Of a stretch of DNA of 64,000 nt, positions 1,085 through 53,783 are shown one piece after another. Both the position numbers and the translations under genes were made by a program. Source of the stretch: Somniosus microcephalus (lineage: Eukaryota); assembly GCA_052327205.1 (NCBI GenBank), contig CM126211.1, positions 234,918,001-234,982,000 of the forward strand, given 5' to 3'. How positions within the stretch are numbered: the stretch's first letter is position 1; each line of letters opens with the position of its first letter. Below the pieces are notes generated by a model. That model was given only the letters and a program-made list of their open reading frames with translations. It ran no database searches and was not told where the DNA came from.

Positions 1085-1957
1085 AAAGAAAGACTTGCAT
1101 TTATATAGCGTCTTTCACAACCACCGGACGTCCCAAAGTACTTTACAGCCAATGAAGTACTATTTTAAGTGTAGTCACTGTTGTAATGTGGGAAATGCAG
1201 CAGCCAATTTGCGCACAGCAAGCTCCCACGAACAGCAATGTGATAATGACCGGATAATCTGTTTGTTTATTATGTTGGTTGAGGGGATAAATATTGGCCA
1301 GGACACCGGGGATAACTTCCCTGCTCTTCCAAGAAATAGTGCCGTGGGATCTTTTACGTCCACCTGAGAGAGCAGACGGGGCCTCGGTTTAACGTCTCAT
1401 CTAAAAGACGACACCGCGGCGCTCCCTCGGCACTGCCCCTCCGACAGTGCGGCGCTGCCCCTCCGACAGTGCGGCGCTCCCTCGGCGCTGCCCCTCCGAC
1501 AGTGCGGCGCTCCCTCGGCGCTGCCCCTCCGACAGTGCGGCGCTCCCTCGGCGCTGCCCCTCCGACAGTGCGGCGCTCCCTCGGCGCTGCCCCTCCGACA
1601 GTGCGGCGCTCCCTCGGCGCTGCCCCTCCGACAGTGCGGCGCTCCCTCGGCGCTGCCCCTCCGACAGTGCGGCGCTCCCTCGGCGCTGCCCCTCCGACAG
1701 TGCGGCGCTCCCTCGGCGCTGCCCCTCCGACAGTGCGGCGCTCCCTCGGCGCTGCCCCTCCGACAGTGCGGCGCTCCCTCGGCGCTGCCCCTCCGACCGT
1801 GCGGCGCTCCCTCGGCGCTGCCCCTCCGACCGTGCGGCGCTCCCTCGGCGCTGCCCCTCCGACCGTGCGGCGCTCCCTCGGCGCTGCACTGGAGTGTCAG
1901 CCTAGCTTTATGTGCTCAAGTCCCTGGAGTGGGACTTGAACCCACAACCTTCTGACT
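1085..1957 (-). mobile_element. DeuSINE (SacSINE1-like) with internal 33-bp tandem expansion (about 14 units, 1414-1889)
   Basis: L2-like tail at left, Deu-domain motif (GATGAGACGTTAAACCGAGG...AAAAGATCCC on - strand), B-box GGTTCAAGTCC at right. Confidence 0.85.
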
Positions 1958-2557
1958 TATTACACTGACTACTACGGTTCTGATTACTTATTGAACACCT
2001 GAGAAGTACAAAACGTTTTGCAAGCAATGAGCTCCCTGGCTTTTTTATTGACTCTTGGATCTCGTGAATCTCAAAGCAGAAGTACCTTGGCACACCTCTC
2101 AAACAGTGTTACTTTGCTGTATTGTGTGGGGAATGTCCCATAAACAGCGACGAGATGAGTGACAAGTTAATCTGATTTGGTGGTTTTGGTTGAGGGAGCA
2201 ATGTTGGTTGGGAGACTGGGAGCACCCTTCCAATAGTGCCGTGGGATCCTGGAACCACTGGAGCAGGCGTGGCATTGGAAGGCCAGTGTCTTCAACGTTC
2301 TTCCAGTGCTGTACTCTCGGCTGAGTTTGTGTGCCCAGCCGCAAGCTTTCGAATCCGAGGGAAGCCCGCTCAGAGCTGAGCTGATGCCGTGGCTATCTTT
2401 GGATTTAATTTATTTTAAAAGTAATGGCAGACACAAACTCCTCCCTTATTTCACACGGTTTGAGTTCTTGTAGGTAGTTGGTTGAGGTTTCCAGGTCATC
2501 GTGTGTAGCGAGGCTGGGACTGTTTGGAGTCTAGCCTGTGGAGAAAGTGCAGATGTT

Positions 2558-2983
2558 GATTGAGTCGACTAGGCCTATATTCCCTCGTGTTTAGAAGAAT
2601 GAGCGGTGATCTCATTGAAACATAAGATTCTGTTGACAGGGTAGATGCTGAGAGGCTGTTTCCCCCTGGCTGGAGAGTCTAGAACCAGGGGTCACAGTCT
2701 CAGGATAAGGGGTCGGCCATTTAGGACTGAGATGAGGAGGAATTTCTTCACTCAGAGGGCGGTGAATCTTTGGAATTCTCTCCCCCAGAGGGCTGTGGAG
2801 GCTCAGTCGTTGAGTATATTCAAGACCGAGATCGATAGATTTTTGGACTCTAGGGGAATCGAGGGATATGGAGATCGGGCGGGAAAGTGGAGTTGAGGTC
2901 GATGATCAACCATGATCTTATTGAATGGCGGAGCAGGCTCGAGGGGCCGAATGGCCGACTCCTGCTCCTAATTCTTATGTTCT
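2558..2983 (+). mobile_element. CR1 3' fragment
   Basis: FPLAGESRTRGHSLRIRGRPFRTEMRRNFFTQR ORF2 C-terminus plus 3' UTR ending TTCTTATGTTCT. Confidence 0.88.
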
Positions 2984-3463
2984 CACATAATTGTGACTTA
3001 ATTCAGTCGAACGAAAATTAACCTTTTTCTTAGAGTTCATCTGCAGCAGAGTTGTCTTTAATGCTTTATTTCTTTCTGGTTTTATTTGTATGGCTTCCCC
3101 TTTTTGAGGGTTTGTTTGAGTGGAGAGAGCAATTGTGGCTGGGCACCACTTTCAGGTGCGCCTGAAGGAAGGGCGTGGAACCAAACCTGGCAAAACTTGG
3201 CAAAATTATGAGATTGCAGGAAATTGTGCCAGTCTGTCAGGCTTTAGATGGAAAAAGGAAGAATCTTATTGGCGAGCAGCAAAATCCAGGTCAGGTCTTG
3301 TGGCTCGGGGTGAACACCAGCAACTATGCGACCCAGCTGCAGGATCTGGTTATCCCGGCCGGTGCTTTTGGTACATAGACAGATAATTCATGGTTTTGCA
3401 GACTTTGCCAATCAGCAGGAATTCCCCTGATGTCACCTCTCCAAGCAGCATGGCTGCACCCAT

Positions 3464-6914: not shown

Positions 6915-7367
<453 letters not shown>

Positions 7368-7371
7368 TAAG

Positions 7372-8579
7372 GAAACATAGAAACATAGAAGATAGGAGCA
7401 GGAGTCGGCCATTCGGCCCTTCTAGCCTGCTCCGCCATTCAATGAGATCATGGCTGGTCATCCAAATTCAGTACCCTGTCCCTGCTTTCTCCCCATATCC
7501 CTTGATCCCTTTAGCCTTAAGAAATATATCCAACTCTTTCTTGAATATATTTAATGAATTGGCCTCCACTGCCCTCTGTGGCAGAGAATTCCACAGGTTC
7601 ACCACTCTCTGGGTGAAGTAATTCCTCCTCATCTCAGTCCTAAATGGCTTACCCCTTATCCTTAGACTGTGGCCCCTGGTTCTGGACTCGCCCGCCATCG
7701 GGAACATCCTTCCTGCATCTAGTCTGTCTAGTCCTGTTAGAATTTTATAAGTTTCAATGAGATCCCCTCTCATTCTTCTAAACTCTAGCGAATATAAGCT
7801 TATTAACCCAATCTCTCTTCATATGTCACTCCCGCCATCCCAGGTATCAGTGTGGTGAATCTTCGCTGAACTCCCTCCATGGCAAGAACATCCTTCCTCA
7901 GATAAGGCAACCAAAACTGCACACAATACTCAAGGTGCGGTCTCACCAAGGCCCTGTACAACTGCAGCAAGACATCCTTGCTCCTGTACTCGAATCCTCT
8001 CGCTATGAAGGCCAACATCCCATTTGCCTTCTTAACCGCCTGCTGCACCTGCATGCTTACCTTCAGCAACTGGTGCACAAGGACACCCAGGTCTCGTTGC
8101 ACTTCCCCTTCTCCCAATCTATTGGCGTTCAGATAATAATCTGCCTTCCTGTTTTTGCCACCAAAGTGGATAGCCTCGCATTTATCCACATTATACTGCA
8201 CCTGCCATGCATCTGCCCAATCACCCAACCTGTTCAAATCGTACTGGAGTTTCTCGGCATCCTCCTCACAGCACACACGACCACCCAGCTTTGTGTCATC
8301 TGCAGACTTGGAGATATTACATCTAGTTCCCTCGTCCAGATCATTTATATATATTGTGAATAGCTGGGGTCCTAGGACCGATCCCTGCGGTACCCCACTA
8401 GTCACTGCCTGCCACTCGGAAAAAGACCCGTTTATTCCAACTCTTTGCTTTCTGTCCGCCAACCAGTTCTCTATCCAAGTCAGTACCTTGCCCCCAATCC
8501 CATGTGCCTTAACTTTACACGCTAATCTCTTATGCGGGACCTTATCGAAAGCCTTTTGAAAGTCCAAATACACCACAAT
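7372..8579 (-). mobile_element. 5'-truncated CR1 LINE (RT domain to 3' end)
   Basis: YLDFQKAFDKVPH, GVPQGSVLGP, xADD motifs; 3' UTR and (TTCTATGT)n tail at 7372-7390. Confidence 0.93.
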
Positions 8580-8580
8580 C

Positions 8581-9920
8581 AGGGATGGTGGGGGTGTGGA
8601 CCTTGTTTTGGGGGGGGGGGGGGGATGGTGGGGGTGTGGACCTTGTTTTGGGGGGGGGGGATGGTGGGGGTGTGGACCCTGTTTCGGGGGGGGGGGGAAT
8701 GGGGGGGGTGTGGACCCTGTTTTTGGGGGGGAGATAGTGGGGGTGTGGACCCTGTTTTGGGGGGGGGGATGGTGGGGATGTGGACCCTGTTTTGGGGGGG
8801 GGGGTGGTGGGGATGTGGACCCTGTTTTGGGGGGGGGGATGGGGGGGTGTGCACCCTGTTTTGGGGGGGGGGATGGGGGGGTGTGCACCCTGTTTTTGGG
8901 GGGGGGATGGTGTGGATGTGGACCCTGTTTTTGGGGGGGGGGGGGTGGTGGGGATGTGGACCCTGTTTTGGATGGTGTGGATGTGGACCCTGTTTTTTTT
9001 TGGGGGGGGGGAGGATGGGGGGGCTGTGGACACTGTTTTGATGGGGGGGGATGTGGACCCTGTTTTTGGGTGGGGGGGTGTGGACCCTGTGATGGGATGG
9101 GGGGGGTGGACCCTGTTTTGGGGNNNNNNNNNNNNNNNNNNNNNNNNNNNNNNNNNNNNNNNNNNNNNNNNNNNNNNNNNNNNNNNNNNNNNNNNNNNNN
9201 NNNNNNNNNNNNNNNNNNNNNNNNNNNNNNNNNNNNNNNNNNNNNNNNNNNNNNNNGGGGGGGTGTGGACCCTGTTTTTGGGGGGGTGGATGGGGGGGGG
9301 TGTGGACCCTGATTTGGGGGGCGGTGGTGGGGATGTGGACCCTGTTTTGGGGGGGGGGGGGTGGTGGGGATGTGGACCCTGTTTTTGGGGGGGGGGTGGT
9401 GGGGGTGTGGACCCTGTTTTGGTGGGGGGGGGGTGTGGACACTGTTTTTGCGGGGGGGGGTGGTGGTGGGGGGTGTGGACCTTGTTTCAGGTGGTGGGGG
9501 TGTGGACCCTGTTTTGGGGGGGGAGGTGGGGGTGTGGACCCTGTTTTTGGGGGGGGGTGGACCCTGTTTTTTGGGGGGGGGTGGGGATGTGGACCCTGTT
9601 TTTGGGGGGGGGGGTGGACCCTGTTTTGGGGGGGGGTGGGGGTGTGGACCCTGTTGTGGGGGGTGGGGGTGTGGACTCTGTTTTGGGGGGGGGGGTGGGT
9701 GGGGGTGTGGACCCTGTTTTGGGGGGTGGGTGGGGGGGTGGACCCTGTTTTTTGGGGGGGGGAGGTGGGGGTGTGGACCCTGTTTTTGGGGGGGGGGTGG
9801 ACCCTGTTTTTGGGGGTGGGTGGGGGTGTGGACCCTGTTTTGGGGGGGGGTGGGTGGGGGTGTGGACCCTGTTTTGGGGGGGTGGGGGGTGGTGGACCTT
9901 GTTTGGCAGTGGGGGTGGGG
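8581..9920. repeat. G-rich degenerate minisatellite (core GTGGACCCTGTTTT between G-runs), interrupted by a gap
   Basis: About 30-37 bp period with variable G-run length, seen directly. Confidence 0.92.
9124..9256. other. Assembly gap (133 N)
   Basis: Run of n. Confidence 0.99.
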
Positions 9921-10200
9921 TCTCCGAGTAGAAGGGAAACTTTCTTGCCATCACCCCTGTGTAGACCAGAAGCGAGTGCCAGGATTGTCGGTGCCAGGAG
10001 GCCGTCGGCATTTCATTCATCACTTATTACAGGATCTCCATGTAAACTGTCTGTGCAGCAAAGACCCAAATGAAATCTTGCGTGTTCTGTCCAAAAACCT
10101 GAAAACTGGATTAAGCGTCTGGGAATGTGCCGTGAATTCTGTGTTGTCACAGCGATGGCAACACACTGAAATATTAACAAGGTGCTTGAAATAAAATTAC

Positions 10201-11990
10201 AAAGGGATTTGAGTATAAGATTAAAGATATCTTGCTGCAATTATATAGGGCCCTGGTGAGACCACACCTGGAGTATTGTGGACAGTTTTGGTCTCCTTAC
10301 CTAAGGAAGGATATACTTGCCATAGAGGGAGTGCAGCGAAGGCTCACCAGACTGGTTCCTGGGATGGGGGGATTGTCCTATGAGGAGAGATTGAGTAGAC
10401 TAGGCCTATATTCTCTGGAGTTTAGAAGAATGATTCATTAAAAGAAAGACTTGTATTTATAGTGTCTTTCGAGACCAGCGGATGTCCCAAAGTGCTTTGC
10501 AGTCAATGAAGTACTATTTGAAGTGTAGTCACTGTTGTAATGCACTGTTGTAGTGTACGCACACTCGGAGGTCGAACTCCAAACCATCGTCAACACCTTC
10601 ACCGAAGCGTACGAGAGCATAGGCCTTACACTAAACATCCGTAAGACAAAGGTCCTCCACCAACCTGCCCCTGCCACACAGTACTGCCCCCCGATTATCA
10701 AAATCCACGACAAGGCCTTCGACAATGTGGACCACTTTCCATACCTTGGGAGCCTACTGTCAACAAGGGCAGATGTCGATGACGCAGTCCAACACTGCCT
10801 TCAGTGTGCCAGTGCAGCCTTCGGTCACCTGAGGAAGAATGTTTGAAGACCAGGACCTCAAACCCGGCACCAAGCTCATGGTCTACAGAGCAGCAGTGAT
10901 ACCTGCCCTGCTGTATGCCTCAGAGACATGGACCATGCACAGCAGGCACCTCAAAGCACTGGAGAGGTACCACCAACGCTGCCTCCGCAAGATCCTGCTA
11001 ATCCATTGGTAGGATAGGTGCACCAACGTCAGTGTTCTTGCTCAGGCCAACATCCCCAGCATCGAAGCTTTGACCACACGCAATCAGCTCTGATGGACGG
11101 GCCACATTGTCCACATGCCCGATACGAGACTCCCAAAGCAAGCGCTCTACTCGGAGCTCTGGCACGGCAAGAGAGCCCCAGGTGGGCAGAGGAAACGCTT
11201 CAAGGACACCCTCAAAGCCTCCTTGAAAAAGTGTAACATCCCCACTGACACCTGGGAATCCCTGGCCCAAGACCGCACAAAGTGGAGGAGAAGCATCCGG
11301 GAAGGCGTCGAACACCTCGAGTCTCTTCGCCGGGAGCAAGCGGAAGCCAGGCGCAAACAGCGGAAGGAGCGCATGTCAACCCAAGCACCCCATCCACCCG
11401 CCCCCTTCAACCACCGTCTGCCCCACCTGTGACAGAGACTGTAGGTCCCGCATTGGACTCATCAGTCACCTGAGAACTCATTTTTAATGTGGAAGCAAGT
11501 CATCCTCGGTTCCGAGGGACTGCCTGAGAAGTAGTCACTGTTGTAATGTAGGAAACACGTCAGCCAATTTACGCACAGCAAGCTCCCACAAACAGCAATG
11601 TGATAGTGAACTGGTAATCTGTTTTTAAAAAAAACATAAAATTTTTAAGGGGCTTGACAAGTTGATGCTGGGAGGATGTTTCCCTTGGCTGGGGAGTCTA
11701 GAACCAGGGGTCACAGTCTCGGGATAAGGCGTTTCCATTTACGACTGAGATGAGGAGAAATTTCATCACTGACGGTTGTGAATCTTTGGAATTCTCTACC
11801 CCAGAGGGCTGTGGATGCTCAGTCGTTGAGTATTTTCAAGACAAAGATCGATAGATTTTGGGATACGAAGGGAACCAAGAGATATGGGGATGGTGCAGGA
11901 AAGTGGAGTTGAGGTAGAAGATCAGCCATGATCTTATTGAATGGCGGAGCAGGCTCGAATGGCCGACTTCTGCTCCTATTTCTTGTGTTC
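10201..11990 (+). mobile_element. CR1 3' fragment (10201-10432 and 11630-11990) interrupted by a - strand DeuSINE tail and an RTE
   Basis: LQLYRALVRPHLEYC...LEFRRM continues after the insert as AAACATAAAATTTTTAAGGGGCTTGAC. Confidence 0.82.
10543..11530 (+). mobile_element. RTE-clade LINE, 5'-truncated, with 18-bp TSD
   Basis: GLTLNIRKTKVLHQ, MPDTRLPKQALYSEL..GKR.PGGQRKRFKDTLK and C-terminal CPTC...HLRTH motifs; GTAGTCACTGTTGTAATG duplicated at 10525-10542 and 11531-11548. Confidence 0.88.
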
Positions 11991-12039
11991 CGAAAACCAG
12001 GTCCATCTGCATCTTCAAAGAGAAAATAGCAGAACAGCT

Positions 12040-12357
12040 GCGCTCAGTTGGTAACGCTCCCGTCTGTAGGTTGGAAGGCCGTGGGTTCAGGCCCTGTTCC
12101 AGTGACTTGAGCACAAAATCCAGGCTGACATTTGTGCAGTACTGAGGGAGCGCCGCACTGTCGGAGGGGCAGTACTGAGGGAGCGCCGCACTGTCGGAGG
12201 GGCAGTACTGAGGGAGTGCCGCACTGTCGGAGAGGCAGTACTGAGGGAGTGCCGCACTGTCGGAGAGGCAGTACTGAGGGAGCGCCGCACTGTCGGAGAG
12301 GCAGTACTGAGGGAGTGCTGCACTGTCGGAGGGGCAGTACTGAGGGAGCGCCGCACT
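12040..12357 (+). mobile_element. DeuSINE head plus 33-bp array running into the gap
   Basis: A/B-box-like head followed by at least 6 units. Confidence 0.82.
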
Positions 12358-12857
12358 NNNNNNNNNNNNNNNNNNNNNNNNNNNNNNNNNNNNNNNNNNN
12401 NNNNNNNNNNNNNNNNNNNNNNNNNNNNNNNNNNNNNNNNNNNNNNNNNNNNNNNNNNNNNNNNNNNNNNNNNNNNNNNNNNNNNNNNNNNNNNNNNNNN
12501 NNNNNNNNNNNNNNNNNNNNNNNNNNNNNNNNNNNNNNNNNNNNNNNNNNNNNNNNNNNNNNNNNNNNNNNNNNNNNNNNNNNNNNNNNNNNNNNNNNNN
12601 NNNNNNNNNNNNNNNNNNNNNNNNNNNNNNNNNNNNNNNNNNNNNNNNNNNNNNNNNNNNNNNNNNNNNNNNNNNNNNNNNNNNNNNNNNNNNNNNNNNN
12701 NNNNNNNNNNNNNNNNNNNNNNNNNNNNNNNNNNNNNNNNNNNNNNNNNNNNNNNNNNNNNNNNNNNNNNNNNNNNNNNNNNNNNNNNNNNNNNNNNNNN
12801 NNNNNNNNNNNNNNNNNNNNNNNNNNNNNNNNNNNNNNNNNNNNNNNNNNNNNNNNN
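12358..12857. other. Assembly gap (500 N)
   Basis: Run of n. Confidence 0.99.
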
Positions 12858-13055
12858 AGGGGGGGCGGGGGAGAGAAGGGAAGGGGGGGCGGGGGAGAGA
12901 AGGGAAGGGGGGGCGGGGGAGAGAAGGGAAGGGGGGCGGGGGAGAGAAGGGAAGGGGGGCGGGGGAGAGGGGAAGGGGGCGGGGGAGAAGGGAAGGGGGA
13001 CGGGGGAGAGAAGGGAGGGGGGTGCGGGGGGAGAGAAGGGAAGGGGGGGCGGGGG
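12858..13055. repeat. Purine-rich repeat of about 23-24 bp (GGGGGGCGGGGGAGAGAAGGGAA)
   Basis: Seen directly. Confidence 0.85.
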
Positions 13056-13518
13056 TGTGAGACAGGATGGGGGGAGAGAAGGGTTTTGAGCACAGTTTTG
13101 AGAATGCTCAAAGCCCATGTTTTGTAACTTTCGTTTTGCCTTATCGCATCCCTCAAAGTGCCTCACAAACATTGATTACTTTGAAGTGCGGAGACCGTCA
13201 TGTAGTGAAACGTTTCAGCAATTTTGCAAGGCTCCATAAATAGCAGTGAGTAGCCAGTTAATCCGTTGATGATTTGAGGAAGGAATGTTGGCCGAGAGAA
13301 CTCCCTGAGCCACCAGAACAAACAGATAGGACCTTGATTTAAAGTCTTGAATGAATGTAGGCACCTCTGACAATGTTGCACCCCTACAATGGGGTAGCAG
13401 CCAGATTAGTGCAGGAATGGAAGCTCGCCTCCCAGAACTTGATTCCCATTGTAGAGAGGGGAGTGGGCTTCCCCGGTGCTTTGTCCTGATTTGGGAATAG
13501 AAGCTTCACTCCCAAGTG

Positions 13519-16700: not shown

Positions 16701-16707
16701 AGGGCTT

Positions 16708-31867: not shown

Positions 31868-32461
<594 letters not shown>

Positions 32462-33910: not shown

Positions 33911-33918
33911 CCTGTGCT

Positions 33919-41299: not shown

Positions 41300-43002
41300 A
41301 AAATAATTCGCTTATGGGATGTGGGCGTTGCTGTCAAGGCCAGCATTTATTGCCCATCCCTAGTTGCCCTTGAGAAGGTGGTGGTGAGCCGCCGCCTTGA
41401 ACCGCTGCAGTCCGTGTGGTGAAGGTGCTCCCACAGTGCTGTTCGGGAGGGAGTTCCAGGATTTTGACCCAGCGACGATGAAGGATTGGCGATATATTTC
41501 TAAGTCAGGATGGTGTGTGACTTGGAGGGGAACTTGGAGGTGGTGGTGTTCCCATGCGCCTGCTGCCCTTGTCCTTCTAGGTGGAAGAGGTCGCGGGTTT
41601 GGGAGGTGCTGGCGAGTTGCTGCAGTGCATCTTGTAGATGGTCCACACTGCAGCCACGGTGCGCCGGTGGTGGAGGGAGTGAATGTTTAAGGTGGTGGAT
41701 GGGGTGCCAATCAAGTGGGCTGCTTTGTCCTGGATGGTGTCGAGCTTCTTGAGTGTTGTTGGAGCTGCACTCATCCAGGCAAGTGGAGAGTATTCCATCA
41801 CACTCTTTACTTGTGCCTTGTAGATGGTGGAAAGGCTTTGGGGAGTCAGGAGGTGAGTCACTTGTCGCAGGATACCCAGCCTCTGACCTGCTCTTATTGC
41901 CACAGTATTTATGTGGCTGGCCCAGTTAAGCTTCTGGTCAATGGTGACCCCCAGGATGTTGGTGGTGGAGGATTCGGCGATGGTAATGCTGTTGAATGTC
42001 AAGGGGAGGTGGTTAGACTCTCGCTTGTTGGAGATAGTCATTGCCTGGCACTTCTGTGGCGTGAATGTTACCTGCCACTTATCAGCCTGAACGTCATCCA
42101 GGTCTTGTTGCATGCGGGCATGGAATGCTTCATTATCTGAGGAGTTGTGAATGGCGCTGAACACTGTGCAGTCATCAGCGAACATCCCCATTTCTGACCT
42201 TATGTTGGAGGGAAGGTCATTGATGAAGCAGCTGAAGATGATTGGGCCTAGGACACTGCCCTGAGGAACTCCTGCAGCGATGTCCTGGGCTGTGATGATT
42301 GACCTTCAACCACCACAACCATTTTCCTTTGTGCTAGGTATGACTCCAGCCAGTGGAGCGTTTTCCCCCTGATTCTCATTGACTTCAGTTTTACTAGGGC
42401 TCCTTGATGCCACACCCGGTCAAATGCTGCCTTGATGTCAAGGGCAGTCACTCTCACCTCACCTCTGGAATTCAGCTCTTTTGTCCATGTTTGGACCAAG
42501 GCTATAATGAGGTCAGGATCCGAGTGGTCTTGGTGGAACCCAAACTGGGCATCAGTGAGCAGGTTATTGGTGAGTAAGTGCCGCTTGATAGCACTGTCGA
42601 TGATACCTTCCATCACTTTGCTGATGATTAAGAGTAGTCTGATGGGGCGGTAATTGGCTGGGTTGGATTTGTCTTGCTTTTTGTGGACAGGACATACTTG
42701 GGCAGTTTTCCGCATTGTCGGATAGATGACAGTGTTGTAGCTGTACTGGAACAGCTTGGCTAGAAGCGCGGCTAGTTCTGGAGCACAAGTCTTCAGCACG
42801 ATAGCTGGGATGTTGTCGGGGCCCACAGCCTGTGCTGTATCCAGCGCGCTCAGCCGTTTCTTGATATCACATGGAGTGAATCGAATTGAATGAAGACTGG
42901 CTTCTGTGAAGGTGGCGACCTCGGGAATAGGCCGATATGGATCATCCACTCGGCACTTCTGGCTGAAGATGGTTGCAAACGCTTCAGCCTTGTCTTTTGC
43001 AC
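41300..43002 (-). mobile_element. 5'-truncated LINE of a second CR1/L2-group family, inserted in the CR1
   Basis: NYRPI, ALDIKAAFDRVWH and MFADD motifs; 3' tail GGGCAATAAATGCTGGCC...CCCACATCCCA; exact family not assigned. Confidence 0.85.
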
Positions 43003-43369
43003 TTCTTACAGGACTTGACAGGATAGATGAAGAGAGGATGTTTCCCCTGGCTGGGGAGTCTAGAACCAGGGGTCACAGTCTCAGAATAAGGGGTCGGCCA
43101 TTTAGGACTGAGATGAGGAATTTCTTCACTCAGAGGGTGGTGAATCTTTGGAATTCTCTACCCCAGAGGGCTGTGGAGGCTCAGTCGTTGAGTATATTCA
43201 AGGCTGAGATCGATAGATTTTTGAATATTAAGGGAATCAAGGGATATGGGGATAGTGCAGGAAAGTGGAGATGAGTTAGAAGATCAGCCATGATCTTATT
43301 GAATGGCGGAGCAGGCTCGAGGGGCCAAATGGCCGAATCCTGCTCCTATTTCTTATGTTCTTATGAGGA

Positions 43370-44272
43370 GATCATCTGTAGTTTGAGGGATAAATGTTGG
43401 CCCTGAATTCCCCTGCTCTTCGAATAGTGGCTTTGGGATCTTTTACATCCGAGAGGGCAGACGGGGCCTCAGTTCAACATGTCATCCAAAAGCTGGCACC
43501 TCCGACAGTGCAGCACTCCCTCAATACTGCTCCTCCGACAGTGCAGCACTCCCTCAGTACTGCTCCTCCGACTGTGCAGCGCTGCCTCAGTACTGCCCCT
43601 CCGACAGTGCGGCGCTCCCTCAGTACTGCCCCTCCGACAGTGCCGCGCTGCCTCAGTACTGCCCCTCCGACAGTGCGGCGCTCCCTCAGTACTGCCCCTC
43701 CGACAGTGCCGCGCTCCCTCAGTGCTGCCCCTCCGACAGTGCAGCGCTCCCTCAGTACTGCCCCTCCGACAGTGCGGCACTCCCTCAGTACTGTCCCTCC
43801 GACAGTGCAGCGCTTCCTCAGTACTGCCCCTCCGACAGTGCCGCGCTCCCTCAGTACTGCCCCTCCGACAGTGCAGCGCTCCCTCAGTACTGCCCCTCCG
43901 ACAGTGCGGCGCTGCCTCAGTACTGCCCCTCCGACAGTGCGGCGCTCCCTCAGTACTGCCCCTCCGACAGTGCGGCGCTGCCTCAGTACTGCCCCTCCGA
44001 CAGTGCGGTGCTCCCTCAGTACTGTCCCTCCGACAGTGCAGCGCTTCCTCAGTACTGCCCCTCCGACAGTGCGGCGCTCCCTCAGTACTGCCCCTCCGAC
44101 AGTGCAGCGCTGCCTCAGTACTGCCCCTCCGACAGTGCGGCGCTGCCTCAGTACTGCCCCTCCGACAGTGCGGCGCTCCCTCAGTACTGCACTGGGAGTG
44201 TCAGCCTGGATTATGGGCTACAGTCTCTGGCGTAGAACCCATGATCTTCTGACTCTCTTGAGAGAGTGCTAC
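43370..44272 (-). mobile_element. DeuSINE with 33-bp array (about 21 units, 43499-44193)
   Basis: Deu domain at left, array, tRNA-like head at right. Confidence 0.85.
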
Positions 44273-44704
44273 CTATCTTAAGTCTGCCTTGAGGGAGGGG
44301 GGATTTGCTGGGACGTTATCACTGACAGGTGCTGAGTTTTGGAGTCCGGGAGATCTAGAAGCCAGCTCTTGGGGGAGACGGGGATGGAGACTGCACGGGC
44401 GGCTCAGTGCTGCGATTCTTCGTGGGATGTCTGATACTAAGTGAGTGCCTTTCTGGGGCTGATGGTGGGGATCCTGCGGTGACGGCAGGACTTTCAAACA
44501 GTAAGTGTGAGATTCCCTCGACAGCAAATCCCAGTTATTGGTTGAAGGGGGAGGTTTTATTAGCACTGGATGGAGGTGTACACACACGTGTGTGTGTGCC
44601 TGAACCTGCGGCAGTTAAAGGCCCCGTTGCCCAGCCTCCTCACCAGCAGGATCTGTGTGAAAGAGTCCCGTGTCATTGCTGCTTCATCTCCCTGCTGCAA
44701 CCGA

Positions 44705-45270
44705 CTCACAAAGCAAGTTGCCTTTAACGTCGTAAAATGTCCCAAGGTGCTTCACAGGAGCGATATCAGACAAAATTTAACACTGAGCCACATAAGGACA
44801 GATATTAGGACAGGTGACCAAAAGTCTGGTCAAAGAGGTCGGTTTTAAATGGCGACTTAAAGGAGGAGAGAGAGGTAGAGAGGCGGAGAGGTTTAGGGAG
44901 GGAATTCCAGAGCTCGGGGCCCAGGCAGCTGAAGGCACGGCCGCCAATGGTGGAGCGATTATAATCAGGGATGCTCAAGAGGCCGGAATAGGGGGAGCAC
45001 AAACCCAATCTCAGGATTAAATAAGATGCTGAGGTTGTGAGAGTGTGGCAGGGACGGAAGACAATGGCTTCGGTCTTCCCAATATTTAGTTGGAGGAAAT
45101 TTCTGCTCATTCAGTGCTGGATGTTGGCAGTGGCGGGGTCGAGAGAGGGGGTGCTGAGATAGAGCTGGGTGTCGTCAGCGTACATGTGGAACCTGACTGT
45201 GGTTTCGATGATGTCGCCGAGGGGAAACATGTAGATGAGAAATAGGAGGGGGCCGAGGATAGATCCTTGT
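44705..45270 (-). mobile_element. Internally deleted L2 fragment
   Basis: YADDTQLY and MSRNFLQLNIGKTEAIVF...GGRAFSCLGPELWNSLP motifs; L2 tail. Confidence 0.82.
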
Positions 45271-45684
45271 GACGCACTTGCTGTTTACTTGTCCCGGAGC
45301 ACAGATCACGCAATCCGTCGGTCTTTGTTTGCATCTCCTTTGTTTTCATTTAAATGCATACCTATCTGGAACTTTCTGAAGTAATGTGGGGGAGTTGCTA
45401 TCTGATTTTTAGCACAATTTGATTTTATTACTTGCTTGGCAGTGATGTGGGTGGCGGCTAGTTGACAGAGTAAATTAATAGCAGTTCCCCGCACGCACGA
45501 ACGAGAGCACCCGCGGGGAATCACAAGCACAGAATGCAGGAGTTCCTCTCACTGCTTTTAATAAATGTGGTTCATTGTGGGCCCTCGATCTCACAATACT
45601 GTGCCAAACAGATAGAATAGGTCATGACTTACACAGGCTGGTTTAGTGAATTACTCGAGTGCTAACTCAAAAAAGACTTTAAGG

Positions 45685-46370
45685 ACTTGCATTTCTATCG
45701 CGCCTTTCACCACTACAGCCAATGAAGCGCTTTGTGAAGTGTGGTCACTGTTGTAATGTAGGAAACACGGCGGCCAAATCGCGCACAGCAAGATCCCACA
45801 AACAGCAATGTGATAATGACCAGATACTCTCTTAATTAGTGATCTCGGTTGAGGGATAAATATTGGCCAGGACACCGGGCAGAACTCCTTCAGTACTGCC
45901 CCTCCGACAGTGCGGCGCTCCCTCAGTACTGCCCCTCCGACAGTGCGGCGCTCCCTCAGTACTGCCCCTCCGACAGTGCGGCGCTCCCTCAGTACTGCCC
46001 CTCCGACAGTGCGGCGCTCCCTCAGTACTGCCCCTCCGACAGTGCGGCGCTCCCTCAGTACTGCCCCTCCGACAGTGCGGCGCTCCCTCAGTGCTGCCCC
46101 TCCGACAGTGCGGCGCTCCCTCAGTACTGCCCCTCTGACAGTGCGGCGCTCCCTCAGTACTGCCCCTCCGACAGTGCGGCGCTCCCTCAGTACTGCCCCT
46201 CTGACAGTGCGGCGCCCCCTCAGTACTGCCCCTCCGACAGTGCGGCGCTCCCTCAGTACTGCACTGGGTGTGTCGGCCTGCGTTATCTGTTCAAGTCTCT
46301 GCGAGTGGGACTTGAATCCACGACCTTCTGACTCCGAGGCGAGAGTGCTGCCCACTGAGCCACGCTTGAC
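45685..46370 (-). mobile_element. DeuSINE with 33-bp array (about 11 units); part of Deu domain deleted
   Basis: Tail, then GGCAGAACTCC fused directly to the array, then head CCCACTGAGCCAC. Confidence 0.85.
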
Positions 46371-46430
46371 CTCAACTCAACTGTAATGGAGCGCCTGCTT
46401 CATCCAACTATTGCTCGGTGTTTCTTTAGG

Positions 46431-47425
46431 TCTGGATCTCTGTCTCTCAATCGCTCTCTCTCTTTCGCTGGATCTGGATCACTCTCGCTGAGTCTCTCTC
46501 GTTCTCTCTCTCTGGATCGTTCTCTCTCTCTCTCTCTGGATCGTTCTCTCTCTCTCGCTGGGTCGTTCTCTCTCTCTGGATCGTTCTCTCTCGCTGGATC
46601 GTTCTCTCTCTCGCTGGATCGTTCTCTCTCTCTCTGGATCGTTCTCTCTCTGGACCGTTCTCTCTGGATCGTTCTCTCTCTCTCTCTCTCTCTCTGGATC
46701 GTTCTCTCTCTGGATCGTTCTCTCTCTCTCTGGATCGTTCTCTCTCTCTCTGGATCGTTCTCTCTCTCTCTGGATCGTTCTCTCTCTCTCTGGATCGTTC
46801 TCTCTCTCTCTGGATCGTTCTCTCTCTCTCTCTCTGGATCGTTCTCTCTCTCTCTCTGGATCGTTCTCTCTCTCTCTGGATCGTTCTCTCTCTGGATCGT
46901 TCTCTCTCTCTCTGGATCGTTCTCTCTCTCTGGATCGTTCTCTCTCTCTCTGGATCGTTCTCTCTCTGGATCGTTCTCTCTCTGGATCATTCTCTCTCTC
47001 TCTCTCTCTCTCTGGATCATTCTCTCTGGATCGTTCTCTCTCTGGATCATTCTCTTTCTCTCTGGATCGTTCTCTCTCTCTGGATCGTTCTCTCTCTCTC
47101 TCTGGATCGTTCTCTCTCTCTCTCTCTCGATCGTTCTCTCTCTCTCTGGATCGTTTTCTCTCTTGCTGGATTTCGTTCTCTCTCTGGATCGTTCGCTCTC
47201 TCTCTCTCTCTCTCTGGATCGTTCTCTCTCTCTGGATCGTTCTCTCTCTCTCTCTCGATCGTTTTCTCTCGCTGGATTTCGTTCTCTCTCTCCCTGGATC
47301 GTTCTCTCTGGATCTCTCTCTCTCTGGATCTCTCTCTCTCTGGATCGTTCTCTCTCTCTCTGGATCTCTCTCTCTCTGGATCGTTCTCTCTCTCTCTGGA
47401 TCGTTCTCTCTCTCTCTCGCTGGAT
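46431..47425. repeat. Compound (TC)n-GGATCGT microsatellite; resumes at 50171-50242 after the CR1
   Basis: TC runs punctuated by TGGATCGT, seen directly. Confidence 0.95.
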
Positions 47426-47441
47426 TTCCTTCTTGACAATT

Positions 47442-50172
47442 AGGACAGACAGGAAGGAAAGGGAGGTGGGGTTGCTATGTTAATCAAGGATGGAATCACT
47501 GCAATAGTGAGAAATGATATTGGGTCAAAGGATCAGGATAGTGAAACAGTTTGGGTGGAGATAAGGAATAATAAGGGGAAAAAGTCACTAGTGGGCGTAG
47601 TCTATAGGCCTCCTAACAGTTGCAACTCTGTTGGTCGGAGTATAAATCAGGAAATAGGTGGGGCTTGTAATAAGGGAACAGCTATAATCATGGGGGATTT
47701 TAACTTTCATATTGACTGGACAAATCAAATTGGGCAGGGCAGCCTTGAAGAGTTCATAGAGTGCATTAGGGGCGGGTTCCTTGAGCAGTATGTAACTGAA
47801 CCAACCAGGGGGCAGGCAATCTTAGATCTGGTCCTGTGTAATGAGACAGGATTAATAAAAAATGTCCTAGTAAAGGATCCCCTTGGAATGAGTGACCATA
47901 ACATGGCTGAATTCCAAATTCAGTTGGAGGGTGAGAGAGTTGGATCTCAAACCAGCGTACTAAGCTTAAATAAAGGAGACTATGAAGGTGTGAGAGCAGA
48001 GTTGACTAAAGTGGACTGGGAAAATAGATTAAAGTGTAAGACGGTACATGAGCAGTGGTGTACATTCAAGGAGATATTTCACAACTTTCAAGAAAAATAT
48101 ATTCCACTGAGGAAAAAGGGGCGTAAAAGAAAAGACAGCCATCCGTGGCTAAGTAAAGTAATAAAGGATAGTATCCGACTGAAAACAAGGGCATATAAAG
48201 TAGCCAAATCTAGTGGGAGAATAGAAGATTGGAAGCATTTAAAAGCCAGCAAACAATAACTAAAAGATTAATTAAGAAAGGGAAGATAGATTATGAAAGT
48301 AAACTAGCAAAAAATATAAAACCAGATAGCAAGAGTTTCTACGGTTATATAAAAAGAAAAAGGGTGGCTAAAGTGAACATTGGTCCCTTAGAGGACGAGA
48401 CTGGGAAACTAGTGGTGGGGAACATGGAGATGGCAAAAACGCTGAACAAATATTTTGTATCAGTCTTTACAGTAGAGGACACTAAAAATATCCCAACACT
48501 GGACAAACAGGGGGCAATGGGGGGAGGAGCTAAACACGATTAAAATCACAAAGGAGGTGGTACTCGGTAAAATAATGGGACTAAAGGCGGATAAATCCCC
48601 TGGACCTGATGGCTTACATCCTAGGGTCTTGAGAGAAGTGGCGGTGGGGATTGCGGATGCATTAGTGGTACTTTTCCAGAACTCCCTGGATTCAGGTAAG
48701 GTCCCAGCAGATTGGAAAACTGCTAATGTAATGCCCTTATTTAAAAAGGGAAGTAGACAAAAGGCTGGAAACCATAGACCAGTTAGCCTAACATCTGTGG
48801 TTGGTAAAATGTTGGAGTTCATTATTAAGGAAGCAGTAACAGGACATTTGGATAAGCATAATTTAATCGGACAGAGTCAGCATGGTTTTATGAAGGGGAA
48901 GTCATGTTTGACAAATTTGCTCGAATTCTTTGAGGACGTGACAAACAGGGTGGATAAAGGGGAACCAGTGGATGTGGTGTATTTGGACTTCCAAAAGGCA
49001 TTTGACAAGGTGCCACACAAAAGATTACTGCACAAGATAAAAAATCACGGGATTGGGGGTAATATACTGGCATGGGTGGAAGATTGGCTATCTAACAGAA
49101 AACAGAGAGTTGGGATAAATGGTTCATTCTTGGGTTGACAATCAGTAACTAGTGGTGTTCCGCAGGGGTCAGTGCTGGGTCCCCAACTCTTTACAATCTA
49201 TATTAACGATTTGGAGGAAGGGACCGAGTGCAACGTATCCAAGTTTGCCGACGATACAAAGATGGGAGGGAAAGCAGTGAGTGAGGAGGACATAAAAAAC
49301 CTGCAAAAGGACATAGACAGGCTAAGTGAGTGGGCAGAGATTTGGCAGATGGAATATAATGTTGGAAAGTGTGAGGTTATGCACTTTGGCAGAAAAAATC
49401 AAAGAGCAAGTTATTATCTAAATGGAGAGAAACTGCAAAGTGCTACAGTACAAAGGGATCTGGGGGTCCTGGTGTATGAAACACAGAAAGTTAGTATGCA
49501 GGTGCAGCAGGTGATCAGGAAGGCCAATGGAATCTTGGCTTTTATTGCAAAAGGGATGGAGTATAAAAACAGGGAAGTCTTGCTTCAGTTATACAGGGTA
49601 TTGGTGAGGCCACACCTGGAATACTGCGTACAGTTTTGGTTTCCATATTTAAGAAAAGATATACTTGCTCTCGAGGCAGTTCGGAGAAGGTTCACTCGGT
49701 TGATTCCGGAGATGAGGGGGTTGACTTATGAGGAAAGGTTGAGTAGGTTGGGCCTCTACTCATTGGAATTCAGAAGAATGAGAGGCGATCTTATCGAAAC
49801 ATATAAGATTGTGAGGGGGCTTGATCGGGTGGATGCGGTGAGGATGTTTCCACTGATGGGTGAGACTAGAACTAGGGGCATAATCTTAGAATAAGGGGCT
49901 GCCGTTTCAAAACTGAGATGAGGAGAAACTTCTTCACTCAGAGGGTGGTGAATCTATGGAATTTGCTACCTCGGAGAGCTGTGGAAGCTGCGACATTAAA
50001 TAAATTTAAAACGGAGATTAGACAGTTTCCTAACTGATAAGGGAATTAGGGGTTACGGGGAGAGGGCAGGGAAGTGGATGTGAGTCTAGGTTCAGATCAG
50101 CCATGATCCTATTGAATGGCGGAGCAGGCCCGAGGGGCCGTATGGCCTACTCCTGCTCCTACTACTTATGTT
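47442..50172 (+). mobile_element. CR1 LINE with most of ORF2 (APE + RT) and 3' UTR; several frameshifts and stops
   Basis: GVVYRPP, MGDFN and SDH endonuclease motifs; KSPGPDG, YLDFQKAFDKVPH, KFADD; ORF pieces 47477-48259, 48229-48543, 48557-49138, 49172-49894. Confidence 0.94.
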
Positions 50173-50459
50173 CTCTCTCTGGATAGTTCTCTCTCTCACT
50201 GGATGTCGTTCTCTCTCGCTCGATCGATCTCTCTCTCTTCTCTAAATTGTGTATAAAGCGCCTTTAATGTAGAAATAGTTCCCAAGGCTTCAGAGAGGCA
50301 TTGGACAGAAAGTGGATGCCAAACCAAAGGAGAATATATAAAGATATAAATCAAGAGTCGATAGACACATCAGACTGGGGTTTAAAGATTGCAGCTTAGT
50401 CGGTGTGGAGTCCCACAGTTGATATCTTGGAAGAGGAGCGGTTAGACCCAGTAAACCAG

Positions 50460-50975
50460 GGGGAGATGAGAATTTTTTTTACACAGTGAGGTATGATGAT
50501 CTGGAATGCATTGCTTGCAAGGGCGGTGGAAGCAGATTCATAGAATCATAGAATGGTTACAGCACAGAAGGAGGCCATTCGGCCCGTCGAGTCCGTGCCG
50601 GCTCTCTGCAAGAACACCTCAGCTAGTCCCACTCCCCCGCCCTTTCCCCGTAGCCCTGCAAATTTTTTTCCTTCAGGTACTTATCCAACTCCCTTTTGAA
50701 AGCGGTGATTGAGTCTGGCTCCACCGCCCTTTCAGGCAGCGCATTCCAGATCCTCACCACTCGCTGCGTAAAGAAGTTTTTCCTCATGTTGCTTTTGGTT
50801 CTTCTGCCAATCACCTTAACTTTCAAAAGGGAATTGGATAAATACTTGAAAAGGAGAAATTCACAGGGCTGTGGGGAAAGAGCAGGGGGAGTGGGACTAA
50901 TTGGAGAGCTCGTTCAAAGAGCCGGCACAGGCACGATGGGCCGCATGGCCTCCTCCTGTGCTGTGTGATTCTCTG
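50460..50975. mobile_element. Older CR1 3' fragment (+) with a related copy (-, about 50540-50820) inserted, forming an inverted pair
   Basis: KNFFTQRVVRIWNALP on the - strand; FKRELDKYLK.....GCGERAG on both strands. Confidence 0.72.
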
Positions 50976-51469
50976 ATTAAAACCACCTGTAACAGCAGGG
51001 ACTTTCTCAATTTCTACTCCCTGAATTGCTGAGTAAACAGCAGAATGCAAATCCTGGCTGCCTGGCCAAGCACAAGCCGCCTTATCGCCACACTTAGGTA
51101 AACACCGAGAATTTGCATTTCCTGTGACCGTGTTTGCAGCACACCCTACTTATCTCGGCACGTTGCTAGAAGCGACAGCTTCATCCATGCAAGTGGGGTG
51201 GGGCATGGGAGAGAGAATTGACAAAAGTTTTTTTGTTGGATTGAGCAGCAACAAGATCAACGCAAAGCTGAAAAGACACGAGGAAACCACCGCCCACAGC
51301 ACCCAGAGGAGAGGCTGTGGTCTATCGGGGCGGAGCTCTCCTCTTCCCCCTTCCGATGGTGGCGGGCAGCCTTTCCCATGATCCTTCTCACCTAGGCACG
51401 ACCCTACCCTGAGCCACCGAGTCGATCGACCGTATGCCCGCACCTGAGCAGATGCCAAACGGACATATA

Positions 51470-52317
51470 CGGATGTGGTTTAATATTGGGAAGACCAAAG
51501 CCATTGACTTCGGTCCCCACCACAAGCTTCACTCCCTCGCCACCAACTCCAGCCCCCTCTCTGGCATCTGTCTGAGGCTGAACCACACTGTTCGCAACCT
51601 TGGTGTCATATTTCACCCCGACATGAGCTTCCGACCACATAACCGCGCCATCACTAAGACCGTCTGTTTCCACCGCCGGAGCATCGCCCGACTCCGCCTC
51701 TGCCTCTGCCTCAGCTCATCTGCTGCTGAAACCCTCATCCATGCCTTTGTTACCTCTAGACTTGACTATTCCAACACACTCCTGGCTGGCCTCCCACATT
51801 CTGCCCTCCGTAAACTTGAGGTCATCCAAAACTCGGCTGCCCGTGTCCTAACTCACACCGAGTCCCATTCGCCCATCACCCCCTGTGGTCGCTGACCTAC
51901 ATTAGCGCCCAGTTAAGCAGCGCCTCGATTTCAAAATTCACATCCTTATTTTCAAATCCCTCCATGGCTTCGCCCCTCCCTATCTCTGCAACCTCCTCCA
52001 GCCCCACAACCCTCCAAGATCTCTGCGCTCCTCCAATTCTGGCCTTTTGCTCATCTTGGATATTAATCACTCCATCATTGGCGGCCGTGCCTTCATCTGT
52101 CTGGGCCCTAAGCTCTGGAATTCCCTCCCTAAACCTCTCCGCCTCTCTCTCCTCCTTTAAGATGCTCCTTAAAACCGACCTCTTTGACCAAGCTTTTGGT
52201 CACCTGTCCTAATATCTCCTTATGTGGCTCGGTGTCAAATTTTGTTTGATAATCGCTCCTGTGAGCACCTTGGGACGTTTTACTACGTTAAAGGCGCTAT
52301 ATAAATGCTAGTTGTTG
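51470..52317 (+). mobile_element. L2 LINE 3' portion (unexpanded parent of the 55/56-bp unit)
   Basis: VRNLGVIF, AETLIHAFVTSRLDYSN, IQNSAARVLT; tail AAAGGCGCTATATAAATGCTAGTTGTTGT. Confidence 0.9.
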
Positions 52318-53084
52318 TGGTTGGTTTATGCTACACCCTCGGTACTTTCCCCCCCCCCCCCCCCCCTGCTGCAATCATGCTTTTTGTTTCTTTTCCATTT
52401 TCGAGAAGTTGATGATTTTTTTGTTGCCAGTTTTTTTGGGAACTGTCCGTTCAGTCTGTCGGTCTGGGAATGAACTGATGAGCGGTTTTGAGTTTAACTT
52501 GCGCCCTCCCGAGATTTCCTGAGTGACGATGTGAGCACAAGATTCTTGACTGTTGAGAGCTGATCACGGCGTATGGCTGGTTGTCAGATCCTCGCAGACC
52601 CAATCCGCTCCCTGGCAACAGCCTCGGCTCTGTGCTTTTATTAGTTTGCGTGATGTGGGTGACATTTGCAAGGCCGCATTAATTGCCCACCTTCAATTGC
52701 CCCAAGGACCTTAAGAATGGTCCACATAGTGTGGGACTGGAGTCAAGTGGTCCAGACAGGTAAGGATGGCAGGTTGTCTTCCTGAAGGACATTGGTGAAC
52801 CAGTTGGGATTTTACAACAATCGTGGTCGTTCTCAAATTACCAAAATTATTGAATCCAATTTCACAACTTGCACTGGTGGGATTTGATCTCCCGACCTCT
52901 AGGCCTAGCACTGGAACCACTGCTCTACTGTATCCTGGATCCCACGGCAGAATTCGAAGAGCAGGGGCGTTCTCCCCGGTGTCCCTCCTGGCCAATGTTC
53001 ACCCCTCAACCACTAAAAAACAGATGATCTGGTCATTATCACATTGCTGTCCGTGGGATCTTGCTGTGCTCAAACTGGCTGGGA

Positions 53085-53783
53085 CGTCCTGGGATCTTTT
53101 CCTTCCACCTGAGAGAGCAGACGGGGCCTCGGTTTAACATCTCAACTGAAAGACGGCACCTCCGACAGTGCGGCACTCCCTCAGTACTGCCCCTCCGCAC
53201 AGTGCAGCACTCCCTCAGTACTTCCCCTCCAACAGTGCGACGCTCCCTCAGTACTGCCCCTCCGACAGTGCGGCGCTCCCTCAGTACTGCCCCTCCGACA
53301 GTGCGGCGCTCCCTCAGTACTGCCCCTCCGACAGTGCGGCGCTCCCTCAGTACGGCCCCTCCGACAGTGCGGCGCTCCCTCAGTACGGCCCCTCCGACAG
53401 TGCGGCGCTCCCTCAGTACGGCCCCTCCGACAGTGCGGCGCTCCCTCAGTACGGCCCCTCCGACAGTGCGGCGCTCCCTCAGTACGGCCCCTCCGACAGT
53501 GCGGCGCTCCCTCAGTACGGCCCCTCCGACAGTGCGGCGCTCCCTCAGTACGGCCCCTCCGACAGTGCGGCGCTCCCTCAGTACGGCCCCTCCGACAGTG
53601 CGGCGCTCCCTCAGTACGGCCCCTCCGACAGTGCGGCGCTCCCTCAGTACGGCCCCTCCGACAGTGCGGCGCTCCCTCAGTACGGCCCCTCCGACAGTGC
53701 GGCGCTCCCTCAGTACGGCCCCTCCGACAGTGCGGCGCTCCCTCAGTACTGCCCCTCCGACAGTGCGGCACTCCCTCAGTACT
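53085..53783 (-). mobile_element. DeuSINE fragment with 33-bp array (about 19 units, 53159-53783), head missing
   Basis: Deu domain CCTCGGTTTAACATCTCA...GACGGCACC followed by the array. Confidence 0.85.

Follow-up and report, generated by a model that had tools for sequence, protein, structure and literature searches.

A 33-bp tandem unit shared by eight old SINE copies in the stim1 region of a shark genome

Tandem repeats derived from SINEs are already known as squamate satellites, mouse B1 VNTRs and Alu minisatellites. In the squamate satellites sSat1-3, arrays of variable unit number derive from one fixed part of a tRNA-SINE at many loci; their units are about 70–290 nt long and 89% alike within and between loci, against 64% for SINE copies, and the account of them describes a subtelomeric bias, proposes concerted evolution and raises the question whether SINE-to-tandem-repeat conversion occurs outside squamates (PMC10702118). 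The mouse B1-derived VNTR family and the MaLR-derived Ms6-hm repeats are dispersed repeat families with units of at most 6 nt, which have grown at one equivalent position of numerous copies of a retroelement (PMC6947457). Human Alu and LTR12 minisatellites are transposon-derived as well, with a direct-repeat trigger, hot regions, growth in place and multilocus families; LTR12 arrays have spread by transposition, and Alu minisatellites hold 2.3–2.4 units on average in a small share of copies (PMC3389668). Small dispersed arrays are also formed by the Drosophila Rsp-like and 1.688 clusters, for which seeding by a repeat that many loci already had, and spread and continued likeness through interlocus conversion or circular DNA, have been proposed (PMC7403614). 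SacSINE1 and LmeSINE1 are DeuSINEs of sharks and skates with a tRNA head, a Deu body, an L2-type tail and a length of about 460–470 nt; the words 'tandem' and 'minisatellite' do not occur in the main text on them (PMC5499810). A literature search with short unit words included, covering sources other than subscription journals, Repbase and Dfam, did not find the repeat family reported here described in sharks. It adds a cartilaginous-fish case with an ancient DeuSINE, and thus another SINE superfamily and another vertebrate class, to the squamate satellites (PMC10702118).

We analysed one window of 64,000 nt from one haplotype. Tandem Repeats Finder detected eight arrays of period 33 with 6.7–31.0 copies and 93–99% matches, four on each strand, which hold 151 near-complete units and 5,045 of the 64,000 bases. 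This confirms the eight arrays of one unit, about 7–31 units long and in both orientations, that a preliminary description had called a dispersed minisatellite family. The SINE context given there for the unit also held: all eight arrays lie at one equivalent site of a single SINE family, each is built from a part of that SINE with at least four middle units, and when the window was scanned with every 20-mer of the unit, allowing at most 4 mismatches, nothing but two loose 16/20 sites, at 4429 and 16403, turned up outside the eight elements. The 33-nt unit is shorter than the squamate units (PMC10702118) and longer than those of the mouse families (PMC6947457); in Drosophila the units are longer and a satellite entered a satellite without a SINE (PMC7403614). 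In comparison with Alu minisatellites the arrays are long, with 7–31 units, and all eight young copies that cover the parent segment in the window carry one (PMC3389668).

On the plus strand, copy A2 (12037..12357) has a decayed head and an array (12136-12357) of at least 6.7 units that ends at a gap of 500 N (12358-12857), so that its roughly 7 units are a minimum. Copy A3 (13520..14540) has a head with both promoter boxes, an array of 23 units (13637-14394) and a body without tail; A4 (28470..29934) is full length, with 31 units (28579-29607), a B box with a 1-nt insertion and a candidate 8-nt target-site duplication; and A5 (32902..33914) has a head, 26.7 units (33000-33875) and a body that is mostly deleted. 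On the minus strand, A1 (1085..1962) is 5'-truncated, without an A box, and has an intact tail and about 14 units (1414-1887), which Tandem Repeats Finder places at 1428/1450-1887, and A6 (43359..44275) has a decayed head, 21 units (43499-44190) and a body without tail. A7 (45681..46370) has a head, a tail, a candidate 7-nt target-site duplication and 11.5 units (45885-46262) joined by a deletion to the middle of the body. A8 (53091..53784) is headless and begins inside its array of 19 units (53153-53782), which is followed by about 70 nt of body and by an inverted body continuation on the plus strand (52938..53086). Target-site duplications were sought where both ends survive; A1 had none of 6 nt or more, and the five copies other than A1, A4 and A7 lack an end. 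Both sides of the array are visible in A1, A3, A4 and A6, where it lies between head and presumed Deu domain; the earlier 'always' is not directly borne out by A2, A5, A7 and A8, with A5 like A7 joined by deletion to a later body part. Squamate arrays usually keep one SINE end, whereas both ends are kept in four of the eight arrays here, plus two with a deletion (PMC10702118). The remaining relatives in the window are on the minus strand and have no array: an old, strongly diverged copy (13146..13405; E 5.5e-19) in which a single degenerate unit spans the parent segment, an old diverged body fragment with no adjoining array (2133..2273), and body/tail fragments whose coverage leaves out the parent segment, at 34396..34555 and within 10441..11627 (10441-10542 and 11515-11627, probably a single copy split by a 1-kb insertion).

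The carrier SINE has a tRNA-derived head, an L2-type tail and a single-unit length of about 470 nt (A4 minus 30 units). When the heads were scored with the usual A and B box patterns, the A box was at consensus in 3/7 and the B box in 2/7, with at most one mismatch in 4/7 and 6/7, respectively, and a spacing of about 45 nt. ARAGORN and Rfam gave no tRNA gene or family match in the window, as is usual for decayed SINE heads. Four SINE tails were compared with three LINE tails from the window, and 11 of the 12 pairs beat all 500 shuffles while the other was reached by 8; one LINE piece encodes a reverse transcriptase motif. We take this LINE to be L2. The label agrees with that used for the shark DeuSINEs, whose head, tail and size, and presumably also Deu body, are likewise those seen here (PMC5499810). 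By eye, and without a statistic or a vertebrate Deu consensus, the body just 3' of the array shares a 12-nt and an 8-nt word, in the same order, with the bivalve Meta+Deu element BivaMD-SINE1 (PMC4824008). An exon in the window is 100% identical to STIM1 of sharks and rays, 95% to that of chimaera and at most 87% to others, which together with the length of about 470 nt matches the cartilaginous-fish host range and the size (about 460 nt) of SacSINE1. The carrier fits SacSINE1, and the DeuSINE-like identity proposed earlier is supported indirectly.

The carriers are old SINE insertions, none of them intact. Their flanks differ by 14–33% between copies, the closest pair among the eight by 13.6%, and both promoter boxes are at consensus in only 1/7 heads, in a copy without tail. 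The flank phylogeny called for in the preliminary description was built for the window copies, with the body fragments left out for lack of overlap, and is star-like (internal branches make up 8% of the tree length; terminal branches are 0.07–0.34). Because its bootstrap values are low (14–72), it does not separate subfamilies or discriminate a single from a repeated origin. The divergence, the star-like tree and the decay of every copy leave the word 'mobile' unsupported.

The arrays are far more uniform than the elements that carry them. In six of the eight loci the array consensus equals the family modal unit; the A1 unit is fixed at 3 differing positions and the A8 unit at 1, in 13 of 19 units. 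Mean divergence was 3.7% for units and 14.3% for flanks, a value that may contain subfamily differences and alignment error, and units were lower at all eight loci (Wilcoxon p 0.008), so that units from different loci resemble one another more closely than the SINE copies do, as in SINE-derived satellites. From the branch lengths of the tree 36 differences were expected and 9.9 were observed (p 3e-7); with rates halved or at their lowest the excess likeness gave p 0.03–0.04. Old, independently decaying flanks provide each locus with a clock of its own, and exchange between dispersed minisatellites is therefore measurable as unit versus flank divergence across thousands of loci and several shark genomes. 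That the arrays are much more alike than the surrounding elements suggests that units have been swapped between arrays. A toy simulation was run 60 times for each setting. Under neutral local turnover the joint pattern arose in 0/60 runs at each of four rates; it arose in 88–98% of replicates when the family unit was imported and in 10–57% under purity-biased local turnover; the latter alone gave low mean divergence in 83–100% at the two higher rates, with within-array variety below that observed. Furthermore, A3 (~14357-14370) and A5 (~33452-33465), which lie 19 kb apart, have in common a 4-bp deletion and, after it, an identical substitution. Leaving A1 aside, this substitution is confined to two units, each beside one of only two such deletions (p ~1e-4). 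The heads of A3 and A5 are 21% different and the flank tree does not pair these copies. The squamate account is not known to report a complex variant common to two loci (PMC10702118).

Local processes have also left their mark. Locus-specific variants form ordered interior runs (13 units in A1, 13 in A8, also in A6 and A4), which bears out the earlier proposal of growth in place, and since a private unit has gone to fixation in A1 and in A8 exchange has not been strong everywhere. Purity is the same in array interiors and at 5' ends and lower at 3' ends. Flank sites close to the arrays showed no greater likeness than those farther away (about 20% within 20–30 nt), and hence no trace of co-conversion was seen, a point against exchange.

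We consider it somewhat better than an even chance that the unit behind these features arose once, that its arrays grew where they stood within a repeat-rich region and that loci exchanged units. The carriers, old by their divergence and of SacSINE1 type to judge by head and tail, would have been inserted long ago by an L2 LINE. The 33-bp stretch that links the head to the Deu domain, with a 12-bp hairpin bounded by GTGC, would have been duplicated to give one derived unit, whose junction G and two hairpin-breaking changes are shared by the arrays and presumably arose once. Each copy would then have grown and turned over locally, leaving the local variant runs, possibly by recombinational repair as is known for GC-rich minisatellites. 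Units may also pass between loci by ectopic gene conversion or template switching that does not extend beyond the array, which would account for the excess similarity and hold the arrays close to a family-wide unit despite the decay of the SINE flanks. The intronic family would be selfish and at present not mobile.

A possible but clearly less probable account is that a short array was present in the master SINE from the start, that all copies inherited it, and that evolution was then local only, with pure runs preferentially amplified and no exchange. It explains the common junction base and the arrays in all eight young copies, the start of A8 inside its array is as expected of 5' truncation, the last units are where most parent-like bases lie, and part of the purity-biased simulations (10–57%) reproduced the joint pattern. 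The A3/A5 variant could also have been inherited from an array-bearing master, which would count against exchange; however, a rare variant would have had to survive at two loci despite turnover that purged other variants. Whale shark SacSINE1-like copies of up to 463 bp, close to the single-unit length of about 470, suggest a single-unit consensus, though a consensus search cannot report longer copies (PMC5499810). The master with a short array that the preliminary description offered as one option is compatible with the data, but alone it leaves unit divergence far below flank divergence unexplained.

The near-palindrome and the GTGC microhomology at 33-bp spacing reported earlier are real when the unit is single, a state that forms a 12-bp stem (z -4.5) and was rebuilt from the ends of A6, the window holding no young unexpanded copy across the parent segment. 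Folding is lost in the amplified unit (z +1.09 as DNA, +0.65 as RNA), and all arrays carry two further bases that break the stem. Parent-like bases are concentrated in the last array units; T at position 16 was found in 3/5 intact or near-intact last units and in 0/6 first units. Because a breakable hairpin is present in the single-unit SINE and lost in the array unit, single-unit copies might be broken there, repaired from array-bearing copies elsewhere and so converted, a homing minisatellite that we regard as rather unlikely. The parent-like bases mainly in last units, the presence of arrays in all eight young copies and the unit variants implied by two proteins described below (P0126, P0131) fit such homing; the flanks are without a co-conversion signal. 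If it were true, the array would spread without retrotransposition through hundreds of thousands of pre-existing SINE 'landing sites' where the chromosomal setting allows, and every shark lineage would drift to its own family-wide unit.

Unit peptides were also found in predicted proteins. A search with a 67-aa mixed-frame query gave 1 of 2038 candidates, the Pristiophorus japonicus protein P0122, at E 5.6; we accepted it despite this value because it matches 10/11 unit residues in several frames, and it ends in array peptide. STIM1 of this species differs from that of the window by 2 residues. A 250-aa array-frame query had no match at E 0.001 among 8000 candidates. A representative protein search yielded 9 matches, three of them with the unit (P0126, P0129 and P0131; 27–36 windows at ≥7/11), and P0126 and P0131 imply further unit variants; the other six were rejected as unrelated repeats. 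Five of the six unit reading frames are open, and arrays therefore leak into gene models such as P0122. Array peptides in another species' annotation speak against the doubtful notion that the arrays are real but owe part of their uniformity to assembly, with reads that map to several places drawing interiors to the commonest unit in polishing. The window does hold two N gaps, both beside repeats and one cutting A2, and interiors are purer than 3' ends; yet 5' ends are no less pure than interiors, and A1, A8, A6 and A4 keep ordered interior runs of their own variants.

Separate birth of each array, with the hairpin stalling replication or repair and the GTGC microhomology duplicating the segment, is largely refuted and very improbable. 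The 12-bp stem and the microhomology favour it, short direct repeats are an accepted trigger of Alu minisatellites (PMC3389668, PMC6947457), and stem-restoring transitions recur (9/25 array-presences on 3/27 non-CpG sites; p 0.001, post hoc), from which the pairing may still be acting. Plain duplication, however, predicts T at the junction, and the 148 internal junctions had G in 146, A in 2 and T in none, with T at 4/4 intact 3' ends. Independent hairpin-triggered expansions, the other option of the preliminary description, are therefore unlikely, since the arrays share this derived base and the amplified unit, with two stem-breaking bases common to all arrays, has lost the hairpin; nor can separate births yield the variant common to A3 and A5. 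An SVA-like composite retroposon, still active and moving with its VNTR, is just as improbable: the unit is without a T-run, as noted earlier, and A4 is full length, without T4 and with a candidate target-site duplication, but the window has no young near-identical copies moving with their array, no pair closer than the 13.6% above, long terminal branches on a star tree and no copy with both boxes and tail.

T4 is present in the whole elements A1, A3, A5 and A6 and absent in A2, A4, A7 and A8. CpG was retained in 82–92% of units (three sites) versus 38/65 in flanks, which speaks for the favoured account with exchange. Amplified variants were weak-to-strong in 6 cases and opposite in 2, with the reverse lean in rare variants (11 versus 25); in these small numbers the lean does no more than suggest GC-biased conversion. 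A drive by G-quadruplexes was not adopted, the G4Hunter-type score being borderline (0.79 on average and 1.2 in the best 25-nt window).

The arrays showed no sign of a host function in the window, and they may serve as multi-allelic markers. Instability of the mouse B1-derived VNTR (credited to Bois et al. 1998) and of Ms6-hm has reportedly been measured in pedigrees. Four stim1 exons (6987-7121, 30112-30228, 32048-32160 and 63143-63259, plus strand) define a host gene span of 6987..63259; A2–A8 are positioned between them, and A1 lies upstream of the first, presumably in the preceding stim1 intron. Tandem repeats make up 28.7% of the window and its GC content is about 52%, a high repeat share and GC that resemble shark chromosome ends (bioRxiv 2022.10.17.512540). 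In relatives, stim1 is mostly found on contigs of 78–217 Mb.

Eight tandem arrays of one 33-bp unit lie in eight SINE copies (A1–A8, in window order), four on each strand, at the places the preliminary description had given. They hold 6.7–31 copies with 93–99% matches, and decomposing them gave 151 near-complete units, of which 53 match the modal unit (the commonest across the family) exactly. A profile built from the copies detected about 12 family members in the window: the eight array-bearing ones, an old diverged copy (13146–13405) in which the parent segment is present as one degenerate unit, and three others, either fragments or split, without coverage of this segment. A SINE copy at 10441–11627 is apparently split by a 1-kb insertion, its halves overlapping by ~16 nt, like a target-site duplication. 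The only occurrences of the unit in the window beyond the eight elements were two loose 16/20 matches. The proposed location at the head/Deu junction held for A1, A3, A4 and A6, in which both SINE flanks are directly visible; it is incompletely displayed in A2, which terminates in an N gap, in A5 and A7, where a deletion has brought the array up against the later body, and in A8, which is without a head and carries an inverted body piece. N gaps of 133 bases (9124–9256) and 500 bases (12358–12857) lie inside or beside tandem arrays. The array borders look break-prone, given the local inversion of ~150 nt of A8 body (52938–53160) and the deletions that A1, A3, A5 and A7 show at short repeats on their array edges.

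The carrier consists of a tRNA-type head containing A and B boxes, a body of ~330 nt and a tail of ~50 nt. It matches SacSINE1, described in the accessible text of PMC5499810 as an L2-tailed DeuSINE of sharks, by host, size and layout; for the Deu domain the sequence evidence consists of a by-eye match of the body to part of a bivalve Deu-bearing SINE. Similarity of SacSINE1 to zebrafish SINE3 begins at position 124 (PMC5499810, same text), so, provided that its numbering applies to these copies, the unit (~107–139 here) would fall on the border between head and Deu domain. The last 50 nt of LINE 3′ ends at 44720–45290 (−), 51413–52318 (+) and 6123–6248 (+), a candidate partner family, match the SINE tail, and 11 of 12 tail–LINE pairs beat all 500 shuffles. 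Candidate target-site duplications were seen in A4 (8 nt) and A7 (7 nt). Flanks diverge by 9–25% from a leave-one-out consensus and by 14–33% pairwise, which dates the insertions to between tens and a few hundred million years ago if the approximate rate used in PMC5499810 (same text), 0.001 per site per million years, is applied. The family had been called mobile; nothing in the window pointed to present mobility, since besides this divergence the flank tree is star-like (terminal branches 0.07–0.34; internal branches 8% of length) and A3, alone in having both promoter boxes at consensus, is without a tail.

Taken jointly, the data lead us to favour, by a small margin, a single origin of the unit followed by recombinational growth and exchange between loci. 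Under neutral change the distance of units from their ancestor should equal that of the flanks, regardless of local turnover. Mean divergence was 3.7% for units (from the modal unit) and 14.3% for flanks, with units lower at all eight loci; the array consensus equalled the modal unit at 6/8 loci, and consensus differences summed over arrays were 4 against 38 expected. Tested with tree branch lengths (36 differences expected, 9.9 observed), the excess similarity had p = 3e-7, and with halved or lowest rates p = 0.03–0.04. In a toy model, crude and with settings of our own choice, the joint pattern appeared in 0/60 replicates at each of four rates under neutral turnover, in 10–57% under purity-biased turnover and in 88–98% with import of the family unit. 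A3 and A5 lie on one strand at a distance of 19 kb; in both, a 4-bp deletion precedes the same single substitution (chance of this pairing ~1e-4), although their heads differ by 21%, which hints directly at exchange. Against exchange count the private units fixed in A1 and A8 and the lack of any rise in similarity in flanks adjoining the arrays. Deviations from an array's own consensus were more numerous in the 3′ half (SINE orientation) of 6/8 arrays, headless A8 included (86 versus 40), partly because the last units are parent-like. It is rather improbable that breaks at hairpin-bearing single-unit SINEs were repaired from array copies elsewhere, which would convert them without retrotransposition.

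Reconstructed from the ends of A6, the single-unit state forms a hairpin of 12 bp (z −4.5). In the modal unit the stem is broken by C at positions 16 and 19, and as DNA this unit does not fold (z +1.1). Had the segment simply been duplicated between the bounding GTGC repeats, unit position 33 would be T; the internal junction base was G in 146 cases, A in 2 and T in none, and all four intact 3′ ends have T there. The suggestion that the hairpin triggered independent expansions is therefore made unlikely by both the junction base and the unfolded unit. The hairpin may have begun the first duplication; it does not describe the sequence now amplified. Position 19 is T in 24 units, and no unit shows the mirror change at 20, so this T resembles a parental base that was retained or has returned, rather than the outcome of plain CpG decay. 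Stem-restoring transitions recurred at positions 3, 5 and 6 (9 of 25 array-presences on 3 of 27 sites; p = 0.001, post hoc) and could reflect template switching or variants shared between loci.

Squamate SINE-derived satellites work in the same mode: in the accessible text of PMC10702118, many loci carry arrays derived from one constant portion of a SINE, the units resemble one another more closely than the SINEs do, and the arrays show a subtelomeric bias. Further precedents are Alu-derived minisatellites (PMC3389668) and the mouse B1 VNTR family (PMC6947457), and for Drosophila a resident repeat was proposed to seed interlocus spread (PMC7403614). New relative to these are the clade, the SINE superfamily and the 8/8 penetrance, and also the short unit, the usual retention of both SINE ends and the hint of exchange from A3 and A5. 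The literature searched held no shark description of this array family; Repbase, Dfam, subscription journals and the PMC5499810 supplement, outside that search, may hold one. In the accessible text of the spiny dogfish genome paper SacSINE1 serves for masking only.

Three of nine protein library matches contained the unit. A predicted Pristiophorus japonicus protein (P0122) ends in the array peptide with the same junction, and two of the three unit-bearing matches look like arrays that differ in junction base, a pattern that would be compatible with units specific to lineages. Five of the six unit frames are open, so the arrays yield long spurious ORFs that enter gene models such as P0122.

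Four stim1 exons map to the + strand (6987, 30112, 32048 and 63143), which makes the arrays intronic; A1 lies ahead of the first of these exons. For the exon at 30112, identity is 100% with STIM1 of sharks and rays and 95% with that of chimaera; the translated exons differ by at least one residue from each of 19 cartilaginous-fish proteins and by two from Pristiophorus. The fourth exon (63143–63259) has Ala where 19/19 of these have Leu, a real change or a sequence error.

Tandem repeats occupy 28.7% of the window and the eight arrays 7.9%. A 56-bp minisatellite of ~49 units (16891–19629) grew from a LINE-like segment with unexpanded copies at 15405–15447 and 51840–51897; it is a second TE-seeded array, with one of three segment copies expanded. 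The region thus makes minisatellites from several kinds of sequence, and comparable formation is reported for shark chromosome ends and small chromosomes (bioRxiv 2022.10.17.512540, accessible text). Further large minisatellites, for most of which the window yielded no parent copy, are 44-bp x69 (20268–23134), 40-bp x100 (24279–28217), 58-bp x11 (55383–55999), 20-bp x45 (46503–47417), G-rich 32–35-bp (8582–9894) and 32–42-bp, beginning directly after an exon (32172–32428). Two LTR-retrotransposon-like elements with interrupted frames carry gag, protease, RT and RNase H in Gypsy order (36354–40304, +), and the same domains plus integrase, also in Gypsy order (56384–60389, −).
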